Below are positions 12,205 through 64,000 of a stretch of 64,000 bases of DNA, piece by piece. The DNA comes from Bacteroidota bacterium. GTDB taxonomy: Bacteria > Bacteroidota > Ignavibacteria > UBA10030 > UBA6906. Both the position numbers and the translations under genes were made by a program. The notes below the pieces were generated by a model that saw nothing but the letters and a program-made list of their open reading frames with translations, made no database searches and was not told the origin of the DNA. The DNA is taken from positions 7,281 through 71,280 of the forward strand of contig DASRUE010000064.1 in the NCBI GenBank assembly GCA_035687895.1, in the 5' to 3' direction. Numbering within the stretch: position 1 is the stretch's first letter; every line of letters starts with the position of its first letter.

Positions 12205-12210
12205 CACTAT

Positions 12211-43792: not shown

Positions 43793-43844
43793 GGACGAAA
43801 ATAGGTAATCTCACAAGGAAAAACAAGTCCGTCATTAATCGAGG

Positions 43845-43883
43845 GAGGAAAAGAAAATCCCGCGCCGTTACCAGGCGCGGGAT
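43845..43883 (-). terminator. Intrinsic terminator downstream of glnA
   Basis: On the minus strand: hairpin aaatcccgcgcc-tggtaac-ggcgcgggattt followed by a T-rich run. Confidence 0.45.
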
Positions 43884-43904
43884 TTGTTCGTGGAGAAGGT
43901 CAAA

Positions 43905-45335: not shown

Positions 45336-45373
45336 GGTGATCCTTTCAGTTGTGAGGTGATGATATCAATGAA

Positions 45374-47073: not shown

Positions 47074-47189
47074 CGGGAAATGAATCCGGGGGAGGAATGG
47101 AAAAGTGGTTCAAATTCCTAAGAAACTAAGGTATTGTGTCATCTATGCCTTCGAATATAAGGTTATTGATAGAAGTTGTCAAGTTTTTT

Positions 47190-47230
47190 TTGCCTAGAAA
47201 ATAGGAAAGGCCGGCACTTCCGTGCCGGCC
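47190..47230 (-). terminator. Intrinsic terminator downstream of rpe
   Basis: Hairpin ggccggcac-ggaa-gtgccggcc with a T-rich tail when read on the minus strand. Confidence 0.45.
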
Positions 47231-47260
47231 CTCACGCAGCTGCCGCCAGCCTGGTTCCTG

Positions 47261-47920: not shown

Positions 47921-47931
47921 GGGGTTTTCTA

Positions 47932-48898: not shown

Positions 48899-49804
48899 AT
48901 GAAATCACTGCAGAGTGACATACTCAGAACGCTGCTGTACTACGACATCTGGCATTATCCATTGACGGCCACTGAGTTGTTCACATTTCTCCCTGTCAAC
49001 TCGATGACATTTGAGGAGTTTGACAAATATTTGCGTGAGCAGGCGACAGGCGATGACATACTCTTCGACCAGGGCTATTACTTCGTCCGGGGAAAGGGTC
49101 CCGGCATCGTCCCACAGCGACGTGAGAAAGAGCATCACGCACAGCTGATGTGGCGAATGGCAGCCATCTCGATGCACATTATCAAGAGATTTCCATTCGT
49201 CAGAGGCGTGTGCGTGTCAGGCGACCTTTCCAAGAACGCAACCAACCGGAAGAGCGACGTGGATTTTTTTGTGATCACCGAACCAGGGCGACTCTGGATC
49301 ACACGCACACTCCTCATCCTCTTTAAGAAGGTCTTCCTTCTGAACAGCAAGAAATACTTCTGCCTGAACTATTTCGTGACAACGGACCATCTCACACTTG
49401 ACGATCACAATGTCTTCCTTGCCACCGAGATTGCACACTTGAAGCCTTTGTACAACTCAGGTTTGTTCAGGAAGTACTTCGCAAGCAATCAGTGGATCAG
49501 AGACTACTTCCCAAATTACGACCTCCGGCATCTACAATTTCCTGTAGCAAACGAGCGTCAGAGCCTCTTGCAGCGTCTGCTGGAGATTCCTTTCTCATTC
49601 ATTGCGGCTGACACGCTCGATACATACCTGATGAACAAGATGGCTGCAATCTGGGCCAGGCGCTATCCGGAGTTTGACGATACCACACGACGGAAAATTT
49701 TCCGCTGTACGAAGAGTGAATCCCGTGCTTATGTTGGCAACTTTGAAGAGAAAATTCTAGCCATTTACGAGCAGAAGCTCCGCGAATTCGGTGTTTCTGC
49801 TTGA
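48899..49804 (+). CDS. Hypothetical protein with nucleotidyltransferase-fold motif
   Basis: 301 aa; GVCVSGDLSKNATNRKSDVDFFV resembles the GS..x..DxD NTase signature; first gene of the same-strand block. Confidence 0.4.
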   Translation: MKSLQSDILRTLLYYDIWHYPLTATELFTFLPVNSMTFEEFDKYLREQATGDDILFDQGYYFVRGKGPGIVPQRREKEHHAQLMWRMAAISMHIIKRFPFVRGVCVSGDLSKNATNRKSDVDFFVITEPGRLWITRTLLILFKKVFLLNSKKYFCLNYFVTTDHLTLDDHNVFLATEIAHLKPLYNSGLFRKYFASNQWIRDYFPNYDLRHLQFPVANERQSLLQRLLEIPFSFIAADTLDTYLMNKMAAIWARRYPEFDDTTRRKIFRCTKSESRAYVGNFEEKILAIYEQKLREFGVSA

Positions 49805-49834: not shown

Positions 49835-51364
49835 GTGATTCATGATTCCTGGGCCTCGGTATCCTGGCGGCAATTTCGTCAACCCATGACCGACATCCTC
49901 TTCACCCATTCATACTTCCTCCACTTTGATCCGAAGGAGTACAAGGCGATGATGCCCTACCCTCCGCTCGGAACGCTCTATGCCGCGAGCGTAGCACGCG
50001 CAGCAGGCTATTCGGTTCAATTGTTCGACAGCATGCTTGCAACCAACGAAGACGAGATCCTCCCCGTTATCCGTGAACACCGTCCAAAAGTAGTTGTCAT
50101 CTACGATGATGATTTCAACTACCTCACCAAGATGTGTCTGACGCGCATGCGTGAAGCAGCGTTCACAATGGCCTCTCTTGCAAAGAGGGAAGGTTGCACG
50201 GTAATCGTTCATGGCTCTGATGCTGTTGACCATCTCGACAAGTACTTCAACCACTCCGTTGACTTCGTCATCTGTGGAGAAGGAGAACAGACGCTCCGTG
50301 AGACACTTGACCACCTCCTGAAAAATGGGAAGGCCAAGGAAGAGATTCCGGGTCTTGCATACATGAGCATGGGGACTGGTGCCACGAACACGGCGCGGCC
50401 TGTGGTTAAGGATCTCGATGCTCTCCCCTTTCCTGCGTGGGACATTGTCGACATTGAGCGATACCGGAGCGTCTGGAAGAGACGACATGGTTTTTTTTCA
50501 GTCAACATGGTCACCACGCGCGGATGCCCATTCCACTGCAATTGGTGTGCAAAGCCAATCTACGGTCAGGTGTACAGTTGTCGTTCGCCACGCAATGTGG
50601 TGGAGGAGATGCAATGGCTGAAACGGACCGTGAAACCCGACCACATCTGGTTCTGCGATGACATTTTTGGACTGAAACCAGGCTGGGTTGCCGCGTTCAG
50701 CAAAGAAGTGATAGATCAGGATGCGATCATTCCCTTCAAATGCCTGGCACGTGTTGACCTCCTGCTGAAGGAAGACGCCGTTGAGAATCTCCGGAAGGCG
50801 GGATGCACAACGGTGTGGGTAGGCGCAGAATCCGGTTCACAAAAGATTCTCGACGCGATGGACAAAGGCACAACAGTGAAGCAAATCTACGAGGCATGCC
50901 GACTTCTGAAGATGGCTGGAATATGTGTCGGCTTTTTTCTGCAGTACGGCTATCCGGGCGAAACCCGAGATGACATTAAACTGACGCTGAAGATGGTAAA
51001 GGAATGCATGCCCGATGAGATTGGTGTGTCTGTTTCCTACCCACTGCCGGGCACGAAGTTCTTTGAGAACGTGAAGACCCAGATGGGAGCGAAGCACAAC
51101 TGGACGGACAGCCAGGATCTCGCAATGATGTTTGGCGGTACCTACCACCCAAACTTTTACCGTGTGTTGCACAAAGTGACGCATAAGAAATTCCGGATCT
51201 GGAAGAGTACAGAACTCTTACAAAAAACGATGAAGCAACCCTGGCGATTCACCCCTCAGAATGTGAGGAGCCTGGCGGCGGGCATATACCATCGCTTCAC
51301 GTTGGCCGGAATAGAGAGCGAGATGGGTGAATTTCTGGCGGAACACAAGCATGCCGACTCTTGA
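49835..51364 (+). CDS. B12-binding-domain radical SAM protein (paralog 1)
   Basis: 509 aa; N-terminal cobalamin-binding Rossmann-like region (PYPPLGTLYAASVARAAGYSVQLFD) and CxxxCxxC (TTRGCPFHCNWCAKP); SD-like AAGGAGAG 6 nt upstream; alternative ATG at 49886. Confidence 0.8.
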   Translation: MIHDSWASVSWRQFRQPMTDILFTHSYFLHFDPKEYKAMMPYPPLGTLYAASVARAAGYSVQLFDSMLATNEDEILPVIREHRPKVVVIYDDDFNYLTKMCLTRMREAAFTMASLAKREGCTVIVHGSDAVDHLDKYFNHSVDFVICGEGEQTLRETLDHLLKNGKAKEEIPGLAYMSMGTGATNTARPVVKDLDALPFPAWDIVDIERYRSVWKRRHGFFSVNMVTTRGCPFHCNWCAKPIYGQVYSCRSPRNVVEEMQWLKRTVKPDHIWFCDDIFGLKPGWVAAFSKEVIDQDAIIPFKCLARVDLLLKEDAVENLRKAGCTTVWVGAESGSQKILDAMDKGTTVKQIYEACRLLKMAGICVGFFLQYGYPGETRDDIKLTLKMVKECMPDEIGVSVSYPLPGTKFFENVKTQMGAKHNWTDSQDLAMMFGGTYHPNFYRVLHKVTHKKFRIWKSTELLQKTMKQPWRFTPQNVRSLAAGIYHRFTLAGIESEMGEFLAEHKHADS

Positions 51365-51485: not shown

Positions 51486-51773
51486 ATGAGCGCGTTCGTA
51501 ATTGTCGACATCAATGTCACTGATCCGGTCGGCTACGAGGAGTACAAGAAAACTGCGGCGCCTACCGTTGCCATGTATGGTGGCAAGTATCTGGCGAGGG
51601 GTGGCCGGACTGAAGTACTGGAAGGTAACTGGATTCCCAATCGATTAGTCATCCTGCAATTCGGAAGTGTTGACCAAGCGAAACAGTGGCTGGATTCGGC
51701 AGAATACAGAGCAATTAAACACCTCCGGCACCAAAATGCCGAATCGAATATGGTCGTCGTTGAAGGAGTGTAA
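51486..51773 (+). CDS. DUF1330 family protein
   Basis: 95 aa; MSAFVIVDINVTDPVGYEEYKK...VILQFGSVDQAKQW typical of DUF1330 (dimeric alpha+beta barrel); AGGAGG SD upstream. Confidence 0.55.
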   Translation: MSAFVIVDINVTDPVGYEEYKKTAAPTVAMYGGKYLARGGRTEVLEGNWIPNRLVILQFGSVDQAKQWLDSAEYRAIKHLRHQNAESNMVVVEGV

Positions 51774-51825: not shown

Positions 51826-52095
51826 ATGGATGACAAAGTCCGCTGTCAGAGTTGCGGGATGCCACTCTCGGACGTGTTTGGGAATTACGGCACAAACAAG
51901 GATGGATCGGATAATACCGACTATTGCGCTTTTTGTTTCAAGGATGGAGCATTCACAAATCCGCGTCAGACAATGGACGAGATGATCAAGAGTTCCATTC
52001 TGAATATGACAAAGGACCTCCGGATGCCAGGAGAAAAGGCCATTCAACTGGCGAACGAGATTATCCCGAAACTGAAGCGATGGAAAAAGCCGTAA
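51826..52095 (+). CDS. Zinc-ribbon domain protein
   Basis: 89 aa; CQSCGMP...CAFCF four-Cys ribbon; AAAGGAGAG SD upstream. Confidence 0.5.
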   Translation: MDDKVRCQSCGMPLSDVFGNYGTNKDGSDNTDYCAFCFKDGAFTNPRQTMDEMIKSSILNMTKDLRMPGEKAIQLANEIIPKLKRWKKP

Positions 52096-52135: not shown

Positions 52136-53572
52136 TTGGAAATCGCCAATGAGTGCCGTCTCAATGTCAAAGGTTCTGCATTGGATATTGTTCTGACACA
52201 CGGGTATTTTCTTCAGGAAGATGAGGCCGAGAAACGGATCATGAAACCGTATCCGACGCTCGGGATTCTTTACATCTCCGCGTACCTCAAATCCAAGGGT
52301 TTTCATGTAGAGGTTTTTGACTCGACATTCCAGTCGAAGAAGGCGTTCACCCGGTACCTTGCCGACACGCGGCCTTCCATCGTAGGCATTTACGTCAACT
52401 TGATGACAAAATTGAATGCCCTCTGGATGATTCGGGAATGCAAGGCACATGGTTGTACTGTGATCGTTGGTGGCCCGGAGATTCCGTACTATGGCGAAGA
52501 TTTTCTGAAACGCGGGGCGGATGTTGGCGTGATTGGTGAGGGTGAGCTGACGCTTCAAGAGTTGATCCCCCATCTCCAGAAGTCCGGCGCCAGCGGGATG
52601 CAACATGTCAGCGGAATCGTCTACCGCGAAAACGACGGCACCATCATCCGGACACCAGAGCGGCAGTTGATTGCCGACCTCGATCAACTTCCCGATCCTG
52701 ACCGCGGCGCGATCGATCTTGCGCGCTACATACAGACATGGAAGACACACCATGGGAAGGGATCAGTCTCCCTCATTTGTGCACGAGGTTGTCCGTTTAC
52801 CTGTACGTGGTGCAGCCGCTCGGTATTTGGTGATACGCACCGTCGGCGTTCGCCGCAGCGTGTGGTGGATGAGATCGAGTTTCTTCTTGCCACGTACCAT
52901 CCCGACATGCTCTGGTTTGCCGATGACGTCTTCACCATCAACCACCGGTGGTTCTATCAGTTTCATGATGAAATGAAGCGACGGAACATCCGGATCCCCT
53001 TTGAGTGTATTTCCCGCGCAGACCGGCTGAACGAGGATATCCTGCAGAAGATGGCCGAACTTGGGTCATTCCGCATATGGTATGGCTCAGAAAGCGGTTC
53101 TCAGAAAATCCTCGATGCAATGCAACGACGGGTAAAGGTGGAACAAATCCAGACGATCACGCGCCTCGCTCAGAAATATGGCATCGAGGCTGGGCTATTT
53201 GTGATGCTTGGCTACCCCGGGGAAGAGATTGAAGACATCGACGCCACCATCGAACATTTGAAAGCGACGAAGCCCGATACATATCTCACCACGGTGGCCT
53301 ATCCAATCAAGGGCACGACGATGTACAACGAAGTTCGGGACCGTTTACTGGTCAATGACGATTGGGCAAGCAGCACCGACAGGAGCATCGACTTTAGAGG
53401 GAGACATTCCTCAAGGTTCTACTACTTTGCCACCCGGCATATGGTGAATGAGGTGCTGTTCTTTCGCCTCAGAAGCAACGGCCACCGGCCGTTCGGCCCC
53501 CGCCTCACATCGTTTGCTAAGTCCAAGCTTGCCCGGATAGGCATGCATCTGACAGAACGGACCCGCACCTGA
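52136..53572 (+). CDS. B12-binding-domain radical SAM protein (paralog 2)
   Basis: 478 aa; collinear with paralog 1 (KPYPTLGILYISAYLKSKGFHVEVFD; CARGCPFTCTWCSRS). Confidence 0.8.
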   Translation: MEIANECRLNVKGSALDIVLTHGYFLQEDEAEKRIMKPYPTLGILYISAYLKSKGFHVEVFDSTFQSKKAFTRYLADTRPSIVGIYVNLMTKLNALWMIRECKAHGCTVIVGGPEIPYYGEDFLKRGADVGVIGEGELTLQELIPHLQKSGASGMQHVSGIVYRENDGTIIRTPERQLIADLDQLPDPDRGAIDLARYIQTWKTHHGKGSVSLICARGCPFTCTWCSRSVFGDTHRRRSPQRVVDEIEFLLATYHPDMLWFADDVFTINHRWFYQFHDEMKRRNIRIPFECISRADRLNEDILQKMAELGSFRIWYGSESGSQKILDAMQRRVKVEQIQTITRLAQKYGIEAGLFVMLGYPGEEIEDIDATIEHLKATKPDTYLTTVAYPIKGTTMYNEVRDRLLVNDDWASSTDRSIDFRGRHSSRFYYFATRHMVNEVLFFRLRSNGHRPFGPRLTSFAKSKLARIGMHLTERTRT

Positions 53573-53575
53573 AGC

Positions 53576-54400
53576 ATGACAACCCGGGCACCAATGATCG
53601 AGCAACGGCCATTTGATGCAGCCGCGTCACTGTATGACCAGGAATTCGACGGCCATCGGCCTACTGTTCGCCTCCGACAGATTATGATGAAGTTGTTCCT
53701 CAGGTACTTTCCCATTCATAGCTCGCTTCTTGAATTGAATTGTGGCACTGGGACCGACGCCATTGCGTTGGCAAACCATCGTATGACCGTTTACGCGACA
53801 GATGATTCCCCAGCGATGGTATCATCTGCGCGGGAAAAAGTGTCGATGGCAGGACTTACCTCTCACATTATCGTTGACCGACTCGCTTTTGATCAACTGG
53901 ATCAACTCCGCGGCAAGGTGTTTGACGGAGTATACTCGAACTTTGGCGGACTGAACTGTGTCCCCGATCTCTCTTCCATCGCTGCTGATGTGAGCGTGCT
54001 ATTGAAGCCTGGTGGTTTCTTCGTCCTTTGCGTGATGACAGACTTCAGTATCTGGGAGACGACCGCGTTTCTCCTTCGGCTCCGATGGCAGAGTGCCTTC
54101 CGTCGTTTGCGGAGAGACGGCGTTGACGCAAGGGTTCATGAAACGACTCTCCGTATCTACTATCACTCTCCTGATTCTATCCGGTCAGCTTTCGAGCCAT
54201 GGTTCGAGCTGGTCGAGATGGGCGGGCTGAGTGTTTTCACTCCCCCACCCGGCGCAACAAAAGCGAACAGAGTGCTTCGCCCCATCATCCCCTTGCTGGA
54301 CCTTCTCGACAACGCTGTGTATCGCTGGTATCCCTTCCGTCGCATTGGGGACCATTGCTATATCGTCATGAGACGCACTACGCGGGAGAGTCTGGCATGA
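53576..54400 (+). CDS. Class I SAM-dependent methyltransferase (paralog A)
   Basis: 274 aa; motif I LELNCGTGTDAIALA and motif post-I/II LKPGGFFVL; stop overlaps the next start (ATGA). Confidence 0.75.
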   Translation: MTTRAPMIEQRPFDAAASLYDQEFDGHRPTVRLRQIMMKLFLRYFPIHSSLLELNCGTGTDAIALANHRMTVYATDDSPAMVSSAREKVSMAGLTSHIIVDRLAFDQLDQLRGKVFDGVYSNFGGLNCVPDLSSIAADVSVLLKPGGFFVLCVMTDFSIWETTAFLLRLRWQSAFRRLRRDGVDARVHETTLRIYYHSPDSIRSAFEPWFELVEMGGLSVFTPPPGATKANRVLRPIIPLLDLLDNAVYRWYPFRRIGDHCYIVMRRTTRESLA

Positions 54401-55572
54401 ATGTCAACACCATGCGGGCAATAGACAGGTATGTCGGCATTCCACTCTGCTGGGCAACGGGGATCTGGAGCAATCTCTTCAGGCACAGGAAACAACTTGC
54501 GCCAGAGCAGTGGAGATCCGTTCTCGTAATGAAGTTTTTCGGGATGGGAAGTGTTCTGCTTTCATCGTCCTTTGTTTCGGCGCTCCATGAACGGCTTCCA
54601 AACGTGAAGATCATTTATCTGACCTTTGGTGCTAATCTGGAAATGCTTGAGATGCTGCCTCAGGTATCATTCCGACTAGCGATCTCCACATCTTCCCTGC
54701 ATCAGTTCATCTATGATTCCTTTAGGGCCTGGCGATTGATCCAGAGGGAATCGGTGGATGCTACATTCGATCTGGAGTTCTTCTCAAAATTTTCGACCCT
54801 TGTGTCATTCCTGTCCAGAGCACCTGTTCGAGTTGGCTATGCCTTACCTACTTACTGGCGGCGAATGCATCTGACCGTTCCCGTCCCTTTCGGGCATAAC
54901 AAGCACGTGACCCAAGTATTCCTCAGTCAGCTGCAAGCTGTCGGGCTCCCGCCGCAGCAAACCGCTTCGGTCACATCTCTACAAGCCTCTCTGATAATCA
55001 ATGCGTGCATGGAACGCGCTCTCAATCTTCAGTCGAATGGATTTGAGATCATTGCCGTGAACATTAACGCAGGGCCCACATCCCTGGAGCGTCGATGGCC
55101 CCCCGGGCGTTTCATAGAGGTGTGTCGTGTGCTTCTCGCCGAGAGGCCGGGCGTGCGATTCGTATTCACGGGAAGCACAGAAGAAAGGGGCTACGTCGAA
55201 GAAGCGCTACGTCACGATGTTGGCGTTCAGCACAACTCCATCAACGCTGCAGGACTCCTTTCTCTTGGCGAACTGATAGCGTTGCTTGAACGATCCTCTC
55301 TTCTTCTCACCAATGATAGCGGCCCCATGCACATTGCGGCCGCGATGGGCAGGCCTGTTGTGGCACTCTTTGGACCCGAGTCGCCCGCATTTTATGGCCC
55401 TTCCGCTCAATCCTCTCTTACCATCTACAAAGCGATCTCCTGCAGCCCGTGTTTGAATGCTTACAATGCCAAACTCTTTGTCTGCCCGTTTGATGCCAGA
55501 TGTATGAAGGAGATCTCAATAGCCGAAGTGCTTGCTGCCGTTCGCTCTCTCCGTCCAGCCCTCGTCACGTAA
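54397..55572 (+). CDS. Glycosyltransferase family 9 (heptosyltransferase-like)
   Basis: Start reassigned to MNVNTMRAIDRY (the ORF-track upstream extension overlaps the methyltransferase); GT9 motifs VLVMKFFGMGSVLLSS and TNDSGPMHIAAAMGRPVVALFGPE. Confidence 0.75.
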   Translation: MNVNTMRAIDRYVGIPLCWATGIWSNLFRHRKQLAPEQWRSVLVMKFFGMGSVLLSSSFVSALHERLPNVKIIYLTFGANLEMLEMLPQVSFRLAISTSSLHQFIYDSFRAWRLIQRESVDATFDLEFFSKFSTLVSFLSRAPVRVGYALPTYWRRMHLTVPVPFGHNKHVTQVFLSQLQAVGLPPQQTASVTSLQASLIINACMERALNLQSNGFEIIAVNINAGPTSLERRWPPGRFIEVCRVLLAERPGVRFVFTGSTEERGYVEEALRHDVGVQHNSINAAGLLSLGELIALLERSSLLLTNDSGPMHIAAAMGRPVVALFGPESPAFYGPSAQSSLTIYKAISCSPCLNAYNAKLFVCPFDARCMKEISIAEVLAAVRSLRPALVT

Positions 55573-55577
55573 AACCC

Positions 55578-56837
55578 ATGCGGATCTTTCCCCGGCCACT
55601 GTTCGGTTACCTCGCTCTTCTTGTGCTTTTCGTGCTGGTTGTGTACCGCGGCGTTTTCCCCGCGTTCACTCAGATCGATACAGATTTTCCCAACTACTAT
55701 ACGGCCGCACGGATTGTCCTTGAACAAGGCGACGTCAACCGTTTGTACGACGATCAATGGTTCCAGGAACAGATCTCCGCCCACCGGATACAGGCAAAAG
55801 GAAAGTTCTCGCCATTTCCGCCAACCACCGCATTGTTGGCCACGCCGCTGGGCCTGGTGCAACCTCAGACGGCGTTGCGGCTCCTTACGTTAGTCAATCT
55901 GATTTGCGTTTCCATTTGCGTCATACTCCTCGCACAGGCAACATCGTTTGAGTTCCCCGATGTCGCCGTGTTCGTTCTTCTCGCTGGGGTTGGACTCATC
56001 AATTGTATTCGCTTCGGCCAGTGGTACATTGTTGTTGCGCTATCCATCATTGCAGGATATGTTCTCTATCAGCATGGTCGCTTCATTTTGTCGGGTATCT
56101 GTTTTGGTCTCTTTGTTCCAGTCAAGTATTTTCCCATTCTGTTTGTTCTTTATTTCGCAGCGCGCAAGGAATGGCGGCTGGTAGTGTCAGCAATCGCCAC
56201 CAGCATGCTACTGATCCTTGTAAGCCTGCTAGTATTGGGGTGGGAGATCCACTATGCATTTCTCACATCTGTCCTTGGCGATCATTTGCAATCCCGGTAT
56301 ACCTTGCAGAGTCCGTTTACAGGCACCTTCCAATCGTTCGATAGCCTACTTCATCAGCTTATGGTGTATGACCCCGAGCAGAACCCTCGTCCAGCGGTCC
56401 TCTCTGCAGACATGTTACCGGATGTCAAGTGGGGAATTGTCACCTTCCTTGTATTGGTGGCGCTTGTCTCCATCTTCAGGTCCCAAAGGCTCGGTGCTTC
56501 TGCGTCAGTCTCCTTATCCCTTTCGCTCTTGAGTGTTCTTGGTTTGCTGATTGCGCCAGGAGGGGCAACATACCACTTTGTCCTTCTCTGGCTCCCTTGT
56601 GCATTGCTATTGCAGTGGCTGGACAACACAGGACGGAATCGGCTTTTCCTTCTAACTCTCCTCATCTACGGGGCAATAGGATTCATCCCCTACAGCCTGT
56701 TCCACTCGTTCGAAGGTCGGGGCTGGCTGTCGGTCCTTGCTTTCCCGCGGCTATGCCTGATGATCCTCCTCTTCTTCGTTGCGGTAGTAACCATGTGGTT
56801 ACCCGCAACCAGGCAGCCTCTGGCACGTAATGTATGA
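55578..56837 (+). CDS. Polytopic membrane protein, DUF2029/GT87-like putative GT-C glycosyltransferase
   Basis: 419 aa; 10 or more transmembrane helices; first periplasmic loop with FPNYYTAARIVLEQGD...YDDQW resembling the DUF2029 family; start reassigned to MRIFPRPLFGY. Confidence 0.45.
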   Translation: MRIFPRPLFGYLALLVLFVLVVYRGVFPAFTQIDTDFPNYYTAARIVLEQGDVNRLYDDQWFQEQISAHRIQAKGKFSPFPPTTALLATPLGLVQPQTALRLLTLVNLICVSICVILLAQATSFEFPDVAVFVLLAGVGLINCIRFGQWYIVVALSIIAGYVLYQHGRFILSGICFGLFVPVKYFPILFVLYFAARKEWRLVVSAIATSMLLILVSLLVLGWEIHYAFLTSVLGDHLQSRYTLQSPFTGTFQSFDSLLHQLMVYDPEQNPRPAVLSADMLPDVKWGIVTFLVLVALVSIFRSQRLGASASVSLSLSLLSVLGLLIAPGGATYHFVLLWLPCALLLQWLDNTGRNRLFLLTLLIYGAIGFIPYSLFHSFEGRGWLSVLAFPRLCLMILLFFVAVVTMWLPATRQPLARNV

Positions 56838-56922
56838 TAGTAGTATCTTGAGAGACGAGAACTTTCTATGTGCTTCCCGCGTTAGATTATATACTTACTG
56901 AGTCATATAGAATCGACAGGTA

Positions 56923-58197
56923 ATGGGTACCTCCCTCAGCATGGGGTTTATTGTGTTCAGGATCGGTCTTCCTCTTGTGTTGTTGTTCATACAAATTGTG
57001 CTCTACCGTCGCACCATGCGGTGGCTCCGGCAGACATTTCCCTCCCGACCGGTTCTCCGCCACACGGCTCGAGGCATTTTCCTTCTTTTCAATCTCTCAC
57101 TTGCCTATGTCGTGTTCATGCACCCTCAGCTAGGAGGAGTTCCGGCATGGTTTATCTATGGCGCGGCCTATCCGTTTTTCATCTGGCACGGCGCAACGTT
57201 TTTCCTTGGTTTGGGGATTTTCATTGCCACGATCGTGAAAGCACCGTTCACTGTCCCGTTCTGGATTTCCAAACGAATTCCAGCCTCGAGGAAAAAGATC
57301 GAAGCAATAAGGGCGGTGCCATCGTTCCAACAATTCGATGTCTCCCGTCGAGTATTCCTGCGCCGCAGCATGTATGGCTTGACTGCCGCGTCGTTTGCTG
57401 GTACGGCGTACGGCATGCTGATCGAGAAGAACGACGTAGAGGTAAACGACGCGGAGTTTTTCATCCCGAATCTGCCACAGGAATTGGATGGTTTCACTAT
57501 CGCCCTCGCCAGCGACATCCACTCAAGTCTCTACATGACTAAGGAAGACATGCAGGAGTATGCACTTCGGATTAACGACATGAAGACGGACATGATTGCG
57601 GTGGTGGGTGACTTCGTCAACGGGGCGATTTCCGAAGTGTATCCGTTTGCGGAAGCCTTCGGCAGCCTCAGCGCGCCGCTCGGTGTGTACGGCGTGATGG
57701 GCAATCACGACTTCTACAATCCTGACCCTGACATGGTGGCAAAGGAGGTGGATGGGTGTGGCATCAAGTTGCTACGGGATGACAAAGTCATTGTCGAAAA
57801 GAACGGTGCGAAGTTCTACCTTATCGGAGTCGATGATGTTGGAAGGGCAAATACGGCAACGGTCAAGCTCGATGCTGCACTCAGGTCCACGCCGCTGAAG
57901 ATTCCGCGCATTCTTCTCTGCCATCGGCCGTACTACCTGCCGGAAGCATCGGAACGAAATATCGACCTGATGCTTAGTGGGCATACACATGGAGGACAAG
58001 TGGTGCTTGGACAGTTTGGCGATCTTGTTATTGCACCTGCTTCATTCGCCTCGCGCTACGTCTGGGGGAAGTACCGAATCGGCGATACGCATATGTACGT
58101 ATCCCGAGGAATTGGCACGGTTGGACTCCCAATCCGTTTGAACTGCCCGCCTGAGCTCACGCGAATCACACTGCGGAGTGCCATGCCTGCTATTTAA
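56923..58197 (+). CDS. Membrane-anchored metallophosphoesterase (calcineurin-like)
   Basis: 424 aa; four or more N-terminal transmembrane helices then MPP motifs LASDIHS, VVGDFVNG, GNHDFY, GHTHGGQ. Confidence 0.7.
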   Translation: MGTSLSMGFIVFRIGLPLVLLFIQIVLYRRTMRWLRQTFPSRPVLRHTARGIFLLFNLSLAYVVFMHPQLGGVPAWFIYGAAYPFFIWHGATFFLGLGIFIATIVKAPFTVPFWISKRIPASRKKIEAIRAVPSFQQFDVSRRVFLRRSMYGLTAASFAGTAYGMLIEKNDVEVNDAEFFIPNLPQELDGFTIALASDIHSSLYMTKEDMQEYALRINDMKTDMIAVVGDFVNGAISEVYPFAEAFGSLSAPLGVYGVMGNHDFYNPDPDMVAKEVDGCGIKLLRDDKVIVEKNGAKFYLIGVDDVGRANTATVKLDAALRSTPLKIPRILLCHRPYYLPEASERNIDLMLSGHTHGGQVVLGQFGDLVIAPASFASRYVWGKYRIGDTHMYVSRGIGTVGLPIRLNCPPELTRITLRSAMPAI

Positions 58198-58211
58198 GAT
58201 GCTGGCAGGTT

Positions 58212-59510
58212 TTGTCTATTCGTTCATCTCTCACCATCCCTTGTTTGTTCTTGACCTCCTCTCCTCCATCCAATGTCGTTGGAAGTCTTCTCCAATCATC
58301 CGCGATATACTTCCTCAGCTCAGTGTTCACCAACGGCGCGACGTTTCTCAACTCGATTGCCGTTTCATGGTACCTTGGCAAGGTGGGCTTGGGTGAATTC
58401 TCCCTCTGTCTAACAGCCGTCTTGATTGCTCTCCTTCTGTCGGACATGGGGTTGAACACAATCGTTTTGCGCGACTACTCTGGTAGAAATGAACCCGCCT
58501 CACCATCTCTCCGGTTTCTCTTGGGAATCAGAACTCTCGCCGCATCTGCAGTCACCGTTGTTATCATCGCGGTTGGTGTTTCGGTCTTTCAGGAGTCCGC
58601 GCCTCTCGTTGTCGCTGCATCCCTATTGATTTTGCCCCGTTCCATTTCCGGGGTGGCTGAGAGCTACCTGAAGGCGCGGATCCAACGGCGAACCGTCTTT
58701 GCTATCGCAATCGTTTCGTCCATCCTCCAGATCCTCTTAGTTTGGGAAGTGGCGGCTGGCGGCAACAGCCTTACCATGATCTTCTTTGTGCTGGCTGCAC
58801 TCGAATATGGGAAATCACTTATCCTCTTGCTCATCCTGCGGCCCACGCTCCAATCCCAAAACAACTCCGTTCCGATTCAGCAATCAGGTTTGAGATCTTT
58901 GCTTGTACAAGGACTTCCCTTCGCGATCATTGCCCTCCTTTCTCTTCTCGGTGAGCGCGCAGATCTCTTTTTCCTTGCCGCTCTACGAGGAGCGGCGGAG
59001 ACTGGAATCTACGCGGGCGCCGAGCGATTCCTTATGCTCGGTAACTTGTTTGCCTTCTCATTCTACGGCTCCGCCCTGCCTGTTTTCTCCTCGTTCCGGA
59101 GACAGGCTGATTATCGCGCCGTGGTGCGAAAGACACTCCTTTTCGCTCTCGTCCTTTCCTCCGGCGCGGCTTTCATACTCGGTGTTGGGGCCCGGTTGAT
59201 CATAGCTACGACTTTCCGCTTCGAGGAATCCGTCCTGCTGCTGCGGATACTTGCCGCCACCTTCCCTGGAATTGTCATCAACTCAATTCTAAGAATAGCC
59301 CTCTTCTCCGTTCAGCGGGAGCGCCCAGTGGCAACCGTGTTTGTCGTTGCCATTGCCCTGAATACAATCCTTAATCTCATATTCATCCCTCGTTTTGGTG
59401 CACTGGCCGCCGCCTTTATTGCCGTGGGTACAGAGTACGCAATTATGTTCGGACATTTGCGGTTGTACCTGTCCTTTGAACATGACAAGTGGCCATCTCG
59501 CAATTATTGA
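58212..59510 (+). CDS. Oligosaccharide flippase (Wzx/MOP superfamily)
   Basis: 432 aa; 12 or more predicted transmembrane helices and a Wzx-like N-terminal region; start codon uncertain (track uses TTG). Confidence 0.6.
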   Translation: MSIRSSLTIPCLFLTSSPPSNVVGSLLQSSAIYFLSSVFTNGATFLNSIAVSWYLGKVGLGEFSLCLTAVLIALLLSDMGLNTIVLRDYSGRNEPASPSLRFLLGIRTLAASAVTVVIIAVGVSVFQESAPLVVAASLLILPRSISGVAESYLKARIQRRTVFAIAIVSSILQILLVWEVAAGGNSLTMIFFVLAALEYGKSLILLLILRPTLQSQNNSVPIQQSGLRSLLVQGLPFAIIALLSLLGERADLFFLAALRGAAETGIYAGAERFLMLGNLFAFSFYGSALPVFSSFRRQADYRAVVRKTLLFALVLSSGAAFILGVGARLIIATTFRFEESVLLLRILAATFPGIVINSILRIALFSVQRERPVATVFVVAIALNTILNLIFIPRFGALAAAFIAVGTEYAIMFGHLRLYLSFEHDKWPSRNY

Positions 59511-59583
59511 CTTTGAGAAGAGTTTCAAACATCTTGCTTTACAATCAATAGTAGTTCATGTTTTTCCGTTATCCACGAAGACA

Positions 59584-61053
59584 ATGATCCTCCTGGTCAA
59601 TCCCAAAGCAACCTCGTGGCGATACCGCATCCCGCTTTCAGTGCTCGCAATTGGTGCTTCCCTAGAAGGAAGATATCCGTATGAGATCGTTGATGGCAAT
59701 GTTGACAGGAAAATATTCGAGACACTTCCTCGACTGATCAAGGAAAAGAACATTCGGTACGTTGGGTTTACGGTTATGCCCGGGCCTCAACTGATGCAGG
59801 CAATCAGGCTTTCCAAGATGGTCCGAGAGCAGTTTCCTACCGTGAAGATAATCTGGGGTGGCTATTTCGCGTCTCTACATACCACCGTCATCTTGCACTC
59901 CGATTGTGCGGACTTCGTGATTAGAGATCAGGGTGATTATTCATTTCGGCAGCTTATAGATGCGCTCGAAGATGGTGGCTCGCTCTCCTCAGTCAAGGGT
60001 CTCTCCTTTGACCACGGGACCATTCAGCACAATGAAAAGCAGGAGTTGATCGACCCAAATCAACTTCCCGCTCTTCCCTACCACAAAGTTCATCTTCCAC
60101 CGTACATAGGAAGGACCTATGTTGGAACCAGGACGATCAACTACCATTCAAGCGTCGGCTGTCCGTTTCTCTGCGGTTTCTGTGCGGTTGCGGCAGTGTA
60201 CAAAGCGCGCTGGCTGGGACTGGCCCCTGAGAAGATCGTTGCAGACCTTCTTTGGTTCAAGAGGGAGCATGGAGTGAACGCTGTTGAGTTTCACGATAAC
60301 AACTTCTTCACCTCAGAAAAGCGCACAAGGGAGTTCGCCGAACGCATTAACGGGCATGAGATAAGCTGGTGGGGAGAAGCGCGCCCCGATACGATGCTGA
60401 ACTACAGTGACAGCACGTGGCGTCTTATGAAGCAGGCAGGCTGCAAGATGATTTTCTTTGGGGCCGAGTCAAGTTCTCAAAAGGTTCTTGACCTGATGGA
60501 AAAAGGTGGTACCCAGACACCCGATACCGTGCTCGACCTCGCTGACCGAATGAAGGGATATAGTATTGTCCCGGAGTTTTCTTTTGTTCTTGGTAGTCCA
60601 ACTGAAACTATGGAACAGGATCTTGAAAGGGATATCCAGTATATCAAGAGAATTAAGGAGATAAGCTCTGAAAGCGAAATTATTATCTATGTTTATTCAC
60701 CTGTCCACTTTGAAGAATCGGAGCTCTACCACAGTGCACAGACCCATGGTTTTGCGTATCCTAAGACCCTTGATGAATGGCTCCTTCCAGAGTGGCAACT
60801 ACATGATCTCCGGAAGAACCCCGTCACGCCCTGGCTAACGCCAAAAGTGCTTACGCGTATCAAGGACTTTGAGCGCGTGCTCCATGCCAGGTACCCGACA
60901 AACGCCGATTTAAGACTGCGAAAAGTCCAACGGACAATTCTCAAATCTCTGGGCACGTGGCGATACAAGCTGTCTATTTACTTCGCTCCGTACGAGATCG
61001 CGGTGGCCCAACGCATGTTCCGGTACCGGCAGCCTGAGGTAGAAGGATTCTGA
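59584..61053 (+). CDS. B12-binding-domain radical SAM protein (paralog 3, divergent)
   Basis: Start at MILLVNPKA (the upstream ORF-track extension overlaps the flippase); cobalamin-binding region (VGFTVMPGPQLMQAIRLSKMVREQFPTVKIIWGGYF) and CxxxCxxC (SSVGCPFLCGFCAV). Confidence 0.8.
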   Translation: MILLVNPKATSWRYRIPLSVLAIGASLEGRYPYEIVDGNVDRKIFETLPRLIKEKNIRYVGFTVMPGPQLMQAIRLSKMVREQFPTVKIIWGGYFASLHTTVILHSDCADFVIRDQGDYSFRQLIDALEDGGSLSSVKGLSFDHGTIQHNEKQELIDPNQLPALPYHKVHLPPYIGRTYVGTRTINYHSSVGCPFLCGFCAVAAVYKARWLGLAPEKIVADLLWFKREHGVNAVEFHDNNFFTSEKRTREFAERINGHEISWWGEARPDTMLNYSDSTWRLMKQAGCKMIFFGAESSSQKVLDLMEKGGTQTPDTVLDLADRMKGYSIVPEFSFVLGSPTETMEQDLERDIQYIKRIKEISSESEIIIYVYSPVHFEESELYHSAQTHGFAYPKTLDEWLLPEWQLHDLRKNPVTPWLTPKVLTRIKDFERVLHARYPTNADLRLRKVQRTILKSLGTWRYKLSIYFAPYEIAVAQRMFRYRQPEVEGF

Positions 61054-61077
61054 GTTAATATCTGGCCTTTCCACTAC

Positions 61078-61881
61078 ATGGAATTGAAAGCAAGCACCAT
61101 AGAGTTTCATAATTCGATCGCCAATGAATATGACGCTCTCTTCAGCGCTAGCGGGACCGGCAATTGGATGCGCAGGCGTGTCCAGGAACAACTGCTGGAC
61201 ATTTTCAAGCCGGGTCAACGTATTCTTGAGATCAATTGTGGAACGGGAACAGACGCGATCGTTCTCGGAAAGGCTGGAATCCGTGTCCATGCTACAGATA
61301 TCTCTCCTCGTATGGTACAGATGACCGCCGAGAAGGTAGTTTCAGAAGGTCTCACGACGCTTGTGACTACTGACGTCATGGACGCTGACGACCCGAGCAT
61401 TCTCGCCAGTCCTCTCTTTGATGGAGCATTCTCGAACTTCAACGGATTGAATCACGTCGATGATCTGGAGCGGACCATGCATCGGCTCTCGAATCTGCTG
61501 AAACCAGGCGGGCGCGTGCTCTGTGTTCTCCTGAACCCTTTCTGTCTATGGGAAGTCCTCTATCTCATAACAACACTCCAATTGCCGAAGGCGTGGCGGC
61601 GCGCCTTTCGGCGGGGAGAAGAATTGGTCAAGGAACGTGTGCCAATGAACTTCCGACTCTATTCTCCGCGTCAGTTCAGCCGGATTGTGAATCGGGATTT
61701 TCTGGTGAGGCGTGTCAGTGGCCTCGGCATTTTCCTCCCTCCAGCGGGTTTTCCTCGTTTGTACGTGAGCCACGTTCCGTTACTGCGAAGACTCGATGTT
61801 GTGGAGAGAATTTTGTCGAGCCTTTATCCATTCTTTTTGATTGGCGACCATTTCATGGTTGAGCTGGAGAAACGAAAATGA
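61078..61881 (+). CDS. Class I SAM-dependent methyltransferase (paralog B)
   Basis: 267 aa; motif I LEINCGTGTDAIVLG and LKPGGRVL; collinear with paralog A including the C-terminal AWRRAFRRGEE / SAFRRLRRDGVD block. Confidence 0.75.
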   Translation: MELKASTIEFHNSIANEYDALFSASGTGNWMRRRVQEQLLDIFKPGQRILEINCGTGTDAIVLGKAGIRVHATDISPRMVQMTAEKVVSEGLTTLVTTDVMDADDPSILASPLFDGAFSNFNGLNHVDDLERTMHRLSNLLKPGGRVLCVLLNPFCLWEVLYLITTLQLPKAWRRAFRRGEELVKERVPMNFRLYSPRQFSRIVNRDFLVRRVSGLGIFLPPAGFPRLYVSHVPLLRRLDVVERILSSLYPFFLIGDHFMVELEKRK

Positions 61882-62444
61882 AAATCCTGAAGGAACTCAT
61901 TCGCAGGATCCGCTTCAAGCTCTATGCGTCTGAGTACATGCGAGTAGCATACCTTCATCCTCGATCAGTTGTATTGGTCACAGTACGACACGAAGGGGCA
62001 GAAAATCTCCTCCCTCTCGACTGGCATCTCCCACTTTCTTTTTTTCCAAAACTATACGGAATCAGTCTTGAGTCCAGGAACTACTCGAGTGAATTGATCC
62101 GGAAATCCGGAGCATTCGCGGTCAATTTCATGCCGTATGAGTTCGAGCCGGCAATGCTCGCCGCCGGAAGAACCTCGGGCCGCACTGCAGATAAATTTGC
62201 CCTCACTAGTCTCTCCCGAAAAGAGGGTGAGGCACTTCCCCTGCCGATTCTTGTTGATGCGATGGGTGTCCTTGAATGCAAGGTGGTTCAGACCGTCGAA
62301 ACAGGCGATCACACCTTGTTTGTCGGAAAGGTGGTCCATGAGATGCTTGCCCCGAAGAACCAACAAAGGCAAGTGTATCATGTGACCGATGCCGTCAAGG
62401 GCAAAGTGATTCGAGACGACACCGGCTCAGGAGGCGGCGTATGA
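61878..62444 (+). CDS. Flavin reductase-like FMN-binding protein
   Basis: 188 aa; split-barrel flavin-reductase fold (SVVLVTVRHEGAENLLPLDWH...FAVNFM); 4-nt overlaps on both sides. Confidence 0.7.
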   Translation: MKILKELIRRIRFKLYASEYMRVAYLHPRSVVLVTVRHEGAENLLPLDWHLPLSFFPKLYGISLESRNYSSELIRKSGAFAVNFMPYEFEPAMLAAGRTSGRTADKFALTSLSRKEGEALPLPILVDAMGVLECKVVQTVETGDHTLFVGKVVHEMLAPKNQQRQVYHVTDAVKGKVIRDDTGSGGGV

Positions 62445-63211
62445 GCATCGATACACAAACGGAGGCACTGCTTTCCACTCCAAGCGATGTTCCGCTTCCC
62501 GACCTTCGCGCCCCCCGCTATCCACGCCTGCTGCGGAAAGGTTTTTCGTCGCTCCTCTTTCGTCTTCACGTGAAGCCTCGGATTGAGCGCACGGACAAGG
62601 TAGTGCTCGAAGGGTTGTCGCTTTCCATCCCCCCTACGGTATTCCATCCACGGTTCTACTATACCAGCCGCTTTCTCGCACACTTTGTCAAACAGATGGA
62701 CTTGGCGAATCGGTCCGTGCTCGAGGTGGGCTGCGGCTCGGGTTTCGTCTCACTCGTGGCTGCATCGCGGGGAGGGCTCATCACTGCGGTGGATATCAAT
62801 GAGGCGGCCGTTACAGCAACGAAAGACAACGCAAAGTTGAATGGGTTCCAGATCAGGGTTCTGCACTCAGATCTTTTTGAGCATTTGCAGGGGGAGCGTT
62901 TCGATCATATCGTCATCAATCCACCCTTCTACGACGGAGATCCGTCTCATATCGCTGAACATGCCTGGAAAGCCGGCGAGAAGAATTCACTCATCCATCG
63001 ATTTGCCGCTTCCGCTACACGGTTTCTTGCCCCCGGAGGTTCGATCATTGCAGTCCTCTCCACTGATACTGAGATGTCGCAAGTCCTTCGCATTTTTAAA
63101 GAGAATGGCTTTTCCATGAGTTGTCTCGCCTCGAAGCGGAAGCTCTTCGAGACACTTTTCATCTTTCAGTTTATCCCCATCACCACCGTTGCACCTGAAC
63201 ATGAACGTTAG
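62441..63211 (+). CDS. HemK/PrmC-type (NPPF motif) SAM-dependent methyltransferase
   Basis: 256 aa; motif I VLEVGCGSGFVSL and catalytic IVINPPFY characteristic of N-directed (N5-Gln / N6-Ade type) methyltransferases. Confidence 0.65.
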   Translation: MSIDTQTEALLSTPSDVPLPDLRAPRYPRLLRKGFSSLLFRLHVKPRIERTDKVVLEGLSLSIPPTVFHPRFYYTSRFLAHFVKQMDLANRSVLEVGCGSGFVSLVAASRGGLITAVDINEAAVTATKDNAKLNGFQIRVLHSDLFEHLQGERFDHIVINPPFYDGDPSHIAEHAWKAGEKNSLIHRFAASATRFLAPGGSIIAVLSTDTEMSQVLRIFKENGFSMSCLASKRKLFETLFIFQFIPITTVAPEHER

Positions 63212-64000
63212 CGCGTTCTTGAACACTCTTGGCTCCCGTGCTCGTACGTTACCCATCTGCATCCTTTATGTCACGGAGGGCTGTAATCTCCGCTGCATAA
63301 CCTGCTCCTACCGGAATCCCCTCCCCAACGAACTCGCGCTTCGGGAGATCACCACACTGGCACACCAACTGAAAGGTGTCGGCCTTCGCCATATTGTCTA
63401 CTCCGGCGGTGAGCCGCTCATGCGAAGGGATTTTCCTGAGATATGTGAGACCTTCAGGCGGCTTGGCATAAAGCAAACACTTCTCACCAACGGGCTGCTG
63501 TTGGAGAAGCGCCTGGAAGAAATCGCCGGACACTTCGCAGAGATCATTGTGTCGGTGGATGGGCCGGATGCGAACGTGCATAACGCGATTCGCGGCATAG
63601 ACTCGTTTGACCACATCGTCCGCGGGATACGGGCTGCCATTGCACATCCCCGTCGGTGTCCACTTTCCATCCGGACTGTGGTTCAGAAGAGAAACTTTCG
63701 CACCCTTGGTGACATGATTGCCTTTGCGGAATCGCTCGGCACAACCAGGATTTCGTTTCTCGCAGCAGATGTTCTTTCTGAAAGTTTCGGGAGGGAGACC
63801 CGAGGGCCTGTCGTCCCGGATAACGAAATCATGCTGTCAGTGGATGAAACATATGAACTCCGGCGACTCGTGGAACGATGGACCGTGGAATACCGTGACG
63901 CCTTTTTGAACGGGTTCGTTACGGAACCACCCGAGAAGTTGTTTCACCTCGTTCAGTATTTCGAGGCATTGGCTCTCAAGGCCTCCTACCCTTCGACACT
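63201..64000 (+). CDS. Radical SAM protein (MoaA/PqqE-like core), 3'-truncated by the window end
   Basis: Not in the supplied ORF list because it runs off the window. ATG at 63201 opens a frame with CNLRCITCSY (CxxxCxxC), a GGEP SAM-binding motif (VYSGGEPLMRRD) and a TIM-barrel-like continuation. It overlaps the preceding methyltransferase by 11 nt. Confidence 0.75.
   Translation, partial: MNVSAFLNTLGSRARTLPICILYVTEGCNLRCITCSYRNPLPNELALREITTLAHQLKGVGLRHIVYSGGEPLMRRDFPEICETFRRLGIKQTLLTNGLLLEKRLEEIAGHFAEIIVSVDGPDANVHNAIRGIDSFDHIVRGIRAAIAHPRRCPLSIRTVVQKRNFRTLGDMIAFAESLGTTRISFLAADVLSESFGRETRGPVVPDNEIMLSVDETYELRRLVERWTVEYRDAFLNGFVTEPPEKLFHLVQYFEALALKASYPST

Follow-up and report, generated by a model that had tools for sequence, protein, structure and literature searches.

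The window analysed here is the whole 64,000-nucleotide stretch of the Bacteroidota bacterium contig DASRUE010000064.1. On its plus strand a single operon of at least 15 kb, running from 48899 to beyond 64000, encodes three cobalamin (B12)-binding radical S-adenosylmethionine (SAM) enzymes (hereafter, rSAM1, rSAM2 and rSAM3) together with class I SAM methyltransferases, two of which (MT1 and MT2) belong to one family. We consider, with a probability of roughly 55%, that this operon is a lineage-specific version of a widespread multi-radical-SAM alkylation cluster, whose products are consecutive tailoring enzymes acting on an envelope glycoconjugate. The evidence, all observed directly, lies in the paralogy of the two methyltransferases, the gene order, the conserved pairing of the two enzyme types, the radical SAM orthogroups and several fusion proteins. 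The conserved core of the cluster consists of rSAM1 to rSAM3, each usually with a class I methyltransferase after it, a SPASM-domain radical SAM enzyme, and either the protein hyp301 (in Bacteroidota) or an HPr-kinase-like protein (in other phyla). The core genes and their closest associates in the window are as follows.

48899..49804, plus strand: hyp301, first gene of the operon, without a Pfam or NCBIfam family, apparent nucleotidyltransferase fold
49835..51364, plus strand: rSAM1, B12-binding radical SAM enzyme, orthogroup 1
52136..53572, plus strand: rSAM2, B12-binding radical SAM enzyme, orthogroup 2, partner of MT1
53576..54400, plus strand: MT1, class I SAM methyltransferase of a family of ~270 amino acids (aa), Pfam Methyltransf_25/11/12/31/23
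59584..61053, plus strand: rSAM3, B12-binding radical SAM enzyme, orthogroup 3, partner of MT2 in this lineage
61078..61881, plus strand: MT2, second member of the methyltransferase family of MT1, separate subclade
61878..62444, plus strand: flavin reductase-like protein (Flavin_Reduct, 107 bits), possible electron supplier
62441..63211, plus strand: MTS/HemK-like class I methyltransferase (MTS, 82 bits), of a family other than that of MT1 and MT2
63201..64000, plus strand: SPASM-domain radical SAM enzyme, cut by the window end (tblastn, 54% identity over 266 aa to the SPASM radical SAM enzyme of locus L001)

The operon thus holds three class I methyltransferases from two families. Its genes are closely spaced or overlapping, with 3 nucleotides (nt) between the rSAM2 stop and the MT1 ATG, 24 nt between the rSAM3 stop and the MT2 ATG, and ATGA overlaps at several junctions, including that of the MT1 stop and the start of the following glycosyltransferase gene. 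The SPASM gene overlaps the 3' end of the HemK-like methyltransferase gene and, because it is cut at the window end, the operon extends past the window. A sequence-only reading had drawn attention to the pairs rSAM2-MT1 and rSAM3-MT2; all four open reading frames (ORFs) are present on the plus strand where it had placed them, and the peptide motifs it quoted all occur in the translations.

Conserved pairing of radical SAM enzymes and methyltransferases

To profile the occurrence of the MT1/MT2 family, we defined it from a 20-sequence alignment and searched 1.84 billion representative sequences, of which 1,615 matched at E ≤ 1e-30. The family is encoded in at least 593 species genomes (one genome per species was scanned), and the loci examined are the best-scoring 80 of these. 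They come from Bacteroidota with names other than Ignavibacteria (38 loci), Acidobacteriota (25) and Ignavibacteria (10), with the remainder from Gemmatimonadota (2), Chloroflexota (2), Gammaproteobacteria (1), Actinomycetota (1) and one unnamed source. The ORFs of 84 loci were labelled by their best BLASTP match to the window proteins.

These 84 loci contain 85 family members, three of them at a contig edge. A B12-binding radical SAM gene lies immediately upstream on the same strand in 73 of the 82 testable cases, spanning at least six phyla, and is of the rSAM1 type in 38, the rSAM2 type in 32 and the rSAM3 type in 3. The other nine members lack a radical SAM gene directly upstream, and several of them have one nearby or divergently oriented. 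The pairing that the sequence-only reading had expected to find in other genomes is also seen in loci chosen without regard to the methyltransferase: three loci found via hyp301 have hyp301, one or more radical SAM genes and then a methyltransferase of ~270 aa. The same order occurs in four further loci. The pairing of radical SAM enzyme and methyltransferase is thus real and old.

The orders seen with this family are rSAM1-rSAM2-MT or rSAM1-MT-rSAM2. Genes of the rSAM3 type are followed 29 times by a methyltransferase of another family (F0, a zinc ribbon plus Methyltransf_11), seven times by an MTS/HemK-like methyltransferase, and five times by a member of the MT1/MT2 family, essentially in the window's own lineage. 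Among the 47 loci with full flanks (hereafter, complete loci), rSAM1 or rSAM2 is present in 45, rSAM3 in 42, a second methyltransferase family in 42, the SPASM radical SAM enzyme in 33, and hyp301 or the HPr-kinase-like P-loop protein in 34; at least one glycosyltransferase gene is found within 10 kb in 31. Up to five B12-binding radical SAM genes occur per locus.

Family membership of the enzymes was called with Pfam gathering scores and NCBIfam curated cut-offs, and folds were compared by searching AlphaFold2 (AF2) models against the Protein Data Bank (PDB) with Foldseek. The three radical SAM enzymes match Radical_SAM (PF04055, cut-off 29.5 bits) at 74 (rSAM1), 70 (rSAM2) and 43 bits (rSAM3), and each carries a CX3CX2C motif (GCPFHCNWC, GCPFTCTWC and GCPFLCGFC, respectively). 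The B12-binding domain (PF02310, cut-off 32.1 bits) is matched by rSAM2 (53.8 bits) and rSAM3 (39.2 bits), with rSAM1 borderline at 32.0 bits. The shared architecture noted earlier for the two pairs therefore holds, with B12-binding and Radical_SAM domains and the CX3CX2C motif in both upstream genes and a class I SAM methyltransferase downstream in both; the third B12-binding radical SAM protein that had been implied is rSAM1.

Identity between the paralogs is 36% for rSAM1 and rSAM2 (E 1e-99), 27% for rSAM1 and rSAM3, and 24% for rSAM2 and rSAM3 (E 7e-19). Across phyla, orthologs share 46-70% (rSAM1), 46-76% (rSAM2) and 39-64% (rSAM3) identity, as against 22-39% between the groups, and orthologs of all three are present in Bacteroidota, Acidobacteriota, Gemmatimonadota and Actinomycetota. 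By these comparisons, rSAM1, rSAM2 and rSAM3 are three old, distinct enzymes that represent ancient orthogroups. The longest ORF of rSAM2 starts at a TTG at 52136, and an in-frame TTG at 52181 gives a protein of 463 aa, as in the orthologs (461-463 aa, 60-84% identity); judged by these lengths, the second TTG is probably the true start. At one syntenic locus (L086, 12681-14938) the rSAM2 position holds a 191-aa Radical_SAM piece, a 152-aa piece without a Pfam match and an 87-aa B12-binding piece, with a Peptidase_M48 gene between them. The rSAM2 gene there looks decayed or disrupted, with the methyltransferase retained.

Among solved structures, the best match of rSAM2 is the glutamine C-methyltransferase QCMT (PDB 9CCB) at only 64 bits, followed by AprD4, OxsB, TokK and CysS, and the matches of rSAM3 are weaker than those of rSAM2. 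Among the NCBIfam models, BchE (TIGR02026, cut-off 481) gives 145.8, 165.4 and 100.9 bits for rSAM1, rSAM2 and rSAM3, and QCMT/MgmA (TIGR04014, cut-off 360) gives 107.6, 99.0 and 47.4 bits, so that all three fall outside both families. The highest-scoring models (BchE, HpnJ, PhpK, ApyD and those of the ladderane type) reach between one quarter and one third of their cut-offs.

The alignment of MT1 with MT2 spans both proteins entirely (34% identity, 135 bits, E 3e-43); against the remaining class I methyltransferases found in clusters of this type, either protein reaches only 23-36 bits, and that in the Rossmann core only. Their paralogy, proposed earlier from the sequence and tested here by pairwise alignment, holds because the full-length match far exceeds this baseline. 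MT1 matches Methyltransf_25 (45.9 bits, gathering score 27) and Methyltransf_11 (44 bits, gathering score 21), and MT2 matches Methyltransf_23 (55.7 bits, gathering score 27). The family is characterised by the motifs LE(L/I)NCGTGxDA, SNFGGLNC, LKPGG, CLWE, AFRR and GDH in the 20-sequence alignment. Invariant among the 20 members, MT1 and MT2 included, are the glycine-rich SAM motif I, LE(L/I)NCGTGTDA, and the acidic residue after strand 2, which is the aspartate of (A)TD (D74 in MT2); all 21 invariant columns of the family are kept in both window proteins.

The AF2 model of MT2 (predicted local distance difference test, pLDDT, 90.3) has a class I methyltransferase fold with a C-terminal lid. 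Its closest PDB structures are TM1389 (E 1e-18, template modelling score, TM, 0.78) and the carboxyl methyltransferase CmoM (E 5e-17, TM 0.77), followed by the small-molecule methyltransferases RebM, AtmM, TleD and MitM, all at 15-22% identity; these neighbours say nothing specific about the substrate. With the motifs and invariant columns kept and a lidded class I fold predicted, MT1 and MT2 look like active enzymes.

In neighbour-joining trees of 87 methyltransferases (100 bootstrap replicates), MT1 groups with the methyltransferases of three syntenic loci (L016, L017 and L030) at 44% identity (bootstrap 76). MT2 falls in a clade with the methyltransferases of L001 and L002, which there too follow rSAM3, and with the second methyltransferase of L055 (bootstrap 76); in L055 the MT2-type gene is followed by a flavin reductase gene, as in the window. 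A protein identical to MT2 is held by NCBI from a metagenome-assembled genome (MAG) of a Bacteroidota bacterium. MT1 sits in the standard position of its family, because the ~270-aa family is the regular partner of rSAM1 and rSAM2. The third methyltransferase of the operon (62441-63211) passes TIGR00537 (HemK2/MTQ2, a model of the hypoth_equivalog type) at 109.3 bits against a cut-off of 87, and in relatives a HemK-like methyltransferase directly follows rSAM3. MT2 is an old, divergent paralog that, in this lineage, is placed with the flavin reductase between rSAM3 and its usual HemK-like methyltransferase.

Several fusion proteins join the enzymes of the cluster. In P0402 (765 aa), a singleton from one 8.3-kb metagenomic contig, an rSAM1 ortholog (56% identity over 495 residues) is in frame with a methyltransferase of the MT1/MT2 family. 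Family members are also fused to an F0-type methyltransferase in P0438 (558 aa, four members from several independent contigs), P0429 and P0446, and to F0-type and HemK-like methyltransferases, in that order, in P0476 and P0491 (814 and 817 aa). P0108 was considered as a second fusion of radical SAM enzyme and methyltransferase and was set aside: the part joined to its methyltransferase is an internal fragment of rSAM2, and the protein has the look of an assembly artefact.

Glycan genes, hyp301 and the possible substrate

The remaining genes of the operon include four with functions expected for envelope glycans, and two small ones.

51486-51773, plus strand: DUF1330 gene (Pfam, 111 bits), a small insert
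51826-52095, plus strand: Zn_ribbon_2 gene (Pfam, 92 bits), a small insert
54397..55572, plus strand: GT9 (heptosyltransferase-like) glycosyltransferase (Glyco_transf_9, 94 bits; heptosyltransferase II, 103 bits against a cut-off of 135)
55578..56837, plus strand: GT87 (DUF2029) integral-membrane glycosyltransferase (GT87, 96 bits)
56923..58197, plus strand: membrane-anchored metallophosphoesterase, YaeI/LpxG-like (Metallophos, 48 bits; YaeI, 118 against 188; LpxG, 95 against 350)
58212..59510, plus strand: polysaccharide flippase, Wzx-like (Polysacc_synt, 64 bits)

In the window, the GT9, GT87, phosphoesterase and flippase genes lie in among the tailoring genes. In relatives, GT87-like genes are near the cluster in 8 of 10 Ignavibacteria loci and 5 of 25 Acidobacteriota loci, and an ABC transporter takes the place of the Wzx-like flippase. 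Syntenic loci of Mucilaginibacter, Dyadobacter and Hanamia are flanked by Wzy_C, flippase, GT2/GT4, Bac_transf and deacetylase genes, and flanking glycan genes are conserved in the loci of Sphingobacteriales, Cytophagales and Chitinophagales.

No gene of the cluster is more conserved than hyp301, with which the operon begins; it evolves far more slowly than the adjacent methyltransferases. It has 897 homologs; the best 120 share 54-80% identity and carry no Pfam domain, and every named one among them is annotated as hypothetical. The AF2 model of hyp301 (pLDDT 90) gave weak Foldseek matches in the PDB (best E 0.045) to MNT, ANT and AadA, which are Pol-beta-type nucleotidyltransferases that adenylylate proteins or aminoglycosides, and the invariant motif GDLSKN..SDVD is consistent with this likeness. 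The N-terminus resembles a winged helix and the core a nucleotidyltransferase.

In most Bacteroidota loci hyp301 is directly upstream of rSAM1. It is absent from the loci of Acidobacteriota, Gemmatimonadota, Actinomycetota and Gammaproteobacteria, where an HPr-kinase-like P-loop protein adjoins rSAM1 or rSAM2 instead (loci with an HPr-kinase-C-like protein include L007, L011, L014, L019, L040, L046 and L074) and an NTP_transf_5 protein is sometimes present. Phosphorylation may thereby stand in for nucleotidylation in these loci. Comparison of hyp301 with the Acidobacteriota NTP_transf_5 proteins by hhalign gave a probability of 0.3, which is not significant, though the G..DxD motifs line up.

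From these observations we infer the chemistry, the order of the steps and the substrate. The enzymes would act one after another on a common substrate. An ordinary SN2 methyl transfer to an oxygen, a nitrogen or a carboxylate would be the task of the class I methyltransferase. The B12-binding radical SAM enzyme, with a 5'-deoxyadenosyl radical and methylcobalamin that it makes itself from SAM, would alkylate or otherwise rearrange an unactivated carbon, possibly of the very group that the methyltransferase has installed or is to cap. The flavin reductase may feed electrons to the Fe-S cluster or to the cobalamin. As to the substrate, the interleaving of the four glycan genes with the tailoring genes makes a sugar or head group most likely, one that belongs to an envelope glycoconjugate of the lipopolysaccharide (LPS), O-antigen or exopolysaccharide (EPS) type. 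This substrate may carry a phosphate or nucleotidyl handle, as suggested by a nucleotidyltransferase-like protein or a kinase accompanying the phosphodiesterase.

Several points weigh against this reading. The NCBIfam matches of the radical SAM enzymes, MT1, MT2 and the SPASM protein all fall far short of the cut-offs, and no curated family assigns these proteins a reaction. The word methylase is itself an assumption for rSAM1 to rSAM3, because the reactions known for this class include cyclisation, ring contraction and dehydration as well (PMC13459092). Adjacency alone does not separate consecutive steps at one site from steps at different sites on one molecule, distant family members outside the best-scoring 80 loci may sit in other contexts, and the P0402 fusion could reflect a lost stop codon or an assembly error. 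No glycosyltransferase gene is near some of the clusters, including the compact six-gene operon of L087 and most Acidobacteriota loci, so the glycan link could be lineage-specific.

A more far-reaching form of the same idea is possible, and we give it a low probability. The cluster would then be a phylum-spanning poly-alkylation system of the cell envelope, in which two to five B12-binding radical SAM enzymes, each with a cognate methyltransferase, work together with a SPASM enzyme and with hyp301 or, in other phyla, a kinase. An O- or N-methyl would be placed on a nucleotidylated or phosphorylated sugar or head group, and the B12-dependent partner, perhaps in a physical complex, would then build ethyl, isopropyl or branched groups, giving a heavily alkylated surface glycoconjugate new for Bacteroidota and Acidobacteriota.

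The target could instead be a peptide or protein, either of the kind of a peptide made by the ribosome and modified after translation (RiPP) or an envelope protein, on which B12-dependent radical SAM C-methylases, a SPASM maturase and N-methyltransferases would act together as in the proteusins, with the glycan genes as mere neighbours or serving to glycosylate the product. The best solved relative of rSAM2 is a protein glutamine C-methyltransferase, the third methyltransferase passes a model for protein-glutamine methyltransferases, and SPASM enzymes are mostly peptide maturases. HPr-kinase-like and NTP_transf_5 genes are known from lasso-peptide clusters, and both occur in the Acidobacteriota loci. 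No conserved precursor ORF was found within 10 kb in 87 loci, where no family of small ORFs occurs in more than four loci and those that do recur are fragments of genes or antisense ORFs, although highly variable peptides could escape such a search; the window operon also has no room for one. The scores of rSAM1 and rSAM2 for the QCMT family (99-107 against 360) argue against this target as well, as do the glycan genes, which are interleaved with the tailoring genes and not just adjacent to them, and the fixed chromosomal position in the lineage, which is like that of a housekeeping envelope locus. We therefore regard a peptide or protein target as rather unlikely.

To about the same degree, we doubt that the enzymes work on a membrane lipid or on a cofactor of the tetrapyrrole kind, as BchM/BchE, HpnJ or the lipid radical SAM enzymes do, with the glycosyltransferases then decorating the lipid. 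The best family matches of rSAM1 and rSAM2 (BchE, HpnJ and the ladderane lipid radical SAM enzyme) point in this direction, as do those of the SPASM protein, which include AhbD, NirJ and AhbC, but all of these matches are 3-5 times below the cut-offs and hardly distinct from matches to other families of B12-binding radical SAM enzymes. The closeness of the methyltransferase fold to CmoM, the L087 operon without glycosyltransferases, and the fact that the MsbA-like ABC transporter, the LpxG-like phosphoesterase and GT9 all act on lipid-linked substrates would also fit; against them stands the lack of bch, hpn or fatty-acid genes in the loci. A narrower version, prompted by the Acidobacteriota loci, was that the cluster makes branched glycerol dialkyl glycerol tetraether (brGDGT) or iso-diabolic-acid lipids. 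It was rejected, as there is no link to ether-lipid or fatty-acid genes and the cluster is equally common in Bacteroidia.

The surroundings of the operon were also inspected. In this Bacteroidota lineage the cluster occupies the same chromosomal place (L001, L004, L085 and L086; the upstream region of the window is 43010-48738), downstream of genes for an enoyl-CoA hydratase, a glutamine synthetase, an ammonium transporter, an AsnC regulator, a ribulose-phosphate epimerase and a PASTA-domain protein. This fixed place suggests that the cluster is vertically inherited rather than a mobile island. The DUF1330 and Zn_ribbon_2 genes are probably outside the system. At the junction in which they are wedged, rSAM1 and rSAM2 are directly adjacent in three relatives (L004, L036 and L085) and separated by 2-7 kb of other DNA in three more (L005, L026 and L029), so that the junction looks like an insertion hot spot. 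An Rfam scan found no cobalamin riboswitch in the window despite the three B12-dependent enzymes; its sole matches, a transfer-messenger RNA (tmRNA) at 11835-12207 (177 bits) and a tRNA at 8854-8926, are both far upstream. A scan of the operon for sigma-70 promoters and terminators gave counts not above shuffled controls, with a model that is unsuited to Bacteroidota.

Separate histories of the two gene pairs

The sequence-only reading had interpreted the two pairs as a tandemly repeated cassette of a B12-binding radical SAM gene and a methyltransferase gene, performing the same two-step methylation at two positions or on two sugars. Two pairs alike in order and orientation, with paralogous methyltransferases, are what such a duplication would leave. 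The radical SAM genes tell otherwise: rSAM2 shares only 24% identity with rSAM3, the two come from different orthogroups that predate the phyla concerned, and the closest paralog of rSAM2 is rSAM1, not rSAM3, so that the two components of the supposed cassette are not both mutual closest paralogs. MT1 and MT2 are sisters in none of the 100 bootstrap trees, and MT1 ranks 85th of the 87 family members by score to MT2. Methyltransferases of other families are the normal partners of rSAM3 orthologs. The two pairs share no repeat at the DNA level and are separated by ~5.2 kb with four unrelated genes. Given the separate methyltransferase subclades and the distinct radical SAM orthogroups, either the methyltransferase duplication is old or MT2 was horizontally acquired, and the radical SAM genes were not involved. 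We consider the duplicated cassette very unlikely. What can be kept of the proposal is the idea of two chemically distinct methyl transfers, one radical and one SN2, within a single pathway, which is plausible and has precedents; that they are done twice by a duplicated cassette is unsupported.

It had been suggested as an alternative that the class I methyltransferase serves the B12-dependent enzyme, re-methylating cob(I)alamin or a corrinoid carrier in the manner of the corrinoid protein-associated methyltransferase CpaM. CpaM (NF043040) is indeed the top NCBIfam match of both MT1 (43.9 bits) and MT2 (55.6 bits), and the strict adjacency and the one radical SAM fusion would fit. These scores are far below the cut-off of 180 and cover the Rossmann part only, so that MT1 and MT2 are not members, and the F0 and MTS methyltransferases, which are unrelated to them, share the match at 33-38 bits. 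In the B12-dependent radical SAM methylases studied so far, enzyme-bound SAM methylates cob(I)alamin while the cobalamin remains bound, that is, they make their own methylcobalamin (PMC8158854). The methyltransferase (31-48% identity) also evolves much faster than its radical SAM partner (60-84%); a protein that docks on a conserved cofactor site would not be expected to do so. The fusions to other methyltransferases point to a shared substrate and not to cofactor service, leaving this the least probable of the explanations, with next to no weight.

Known systems and significance

The closest model for how a pair of radical SAM enzyme and methyltransferase could work is found in cystobactamid biosynthesis, where the class I O-methyltransferase CysF acts before the B12-dependent radical SAM enzyme CysS (PMC7966384). 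There is no specific sequence relationship, as CysS scores only 20-30 bits against rSAM2 and rSAM3. Theirs is also a nonribosomal peptide synthetase (NRPS) antibiotic pathway with an aromatic substrate, whereas the cluster described here is a phylum-spanning envelope locus.

A second precedent is bacteriochlorophyll biosynthesis (BchM/BchE, with BchQ/BchR/BchU), where BchM, a class I methyltransferase, esterifies a side chain that the B12-dependent radical SAM enzyme BchE then transforms. BchE is the top NCBIfam match of rSAM1 and rSAM2, and the JGI auto-annotation names some orthologs after it. However, these two proteins are not members of the family (146-165 bits against 481), no other bch genes are present, and the hosts include non-phototrophs.

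In aminoglycoside (GenK/GenD1 with GenN) and proteusin (PoyB/PoyC with PoyE) pathways, several B12-dependent radical SAM C-methylases and class I N-methyltransferases act on one sugar-based or peptide scaffold. These are secondary-metabolite clusters of narrow distribution, without the conserved one-to-one adjacency or a gene like hyp301.

The combination of hyp301, radical SAM enzymes and metallophosphoesterase has a parallel in fosfomycin biosynthesis, where the cytidylyltransferase Fom1 is followed by the B12-dependent radical SAM enzyme Fom3, which acts on the nucleotidylated substrate, and by the phosphodiester hydrolase FomD (PMC8158854). The cluster here differs in having no phosphoenolpyruvate (PEP) mutase or phosphonate genes, in scoring 78-130 against cut-offs of 575-600 with the PhpK-type and Sden_1168-type models, and in that hyp301 is only weakly like the Pol-beta-type nucleotidyltransferases. 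QCMT/MgmA, as the best solved relative of rSAM2, is a B12-dependent radical SAM methylase of class I architecture; the match (E 1e-16) covers the core only, and QCMT acts on a glutamine of the methyl-coenzyme M reductase of methanogens.

No description of this cluster was found in the literature searched. The enzyme superfamilies, and the idea of pairing a radical SAM enzyme dependent on B12 with a conventional methyltransferase, are well known; uncharacterized are the particular families, the one-to-one way in which they pair, and hyp301. B12-dependent radical SAM enzymes are one of the largest enzyme groups with mostly unknown reactions. The analysis defines one cluster, found in hundreds of soil and sediment bacteria, several of them cultured, that brings together three ancient orthogroups of such enzymes, the class I methyltransferases that regularly accompany them, and the conserved hyp301. 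Even if the product proves ordinary, the analysis corrects a tempting misreading as a duplicated cassette and removes the idea of cobalamin recharging. The cultured carriers, which include Mucilaginibacter flavidus, M. dorajii, M. psychrotolerans, Dyadobacter frigoris, Hanamia caeni and Roseivirga pacifica, make the lead testable. Should the cluster make an alkylated glycan or lipid of the envelope, this would be a new surface chemistry for Bacteroidota and Acidobacteriota, and the cluster would also offer a tractable system in which to ask why radical and conventional methyltransferases so often stay side by side.

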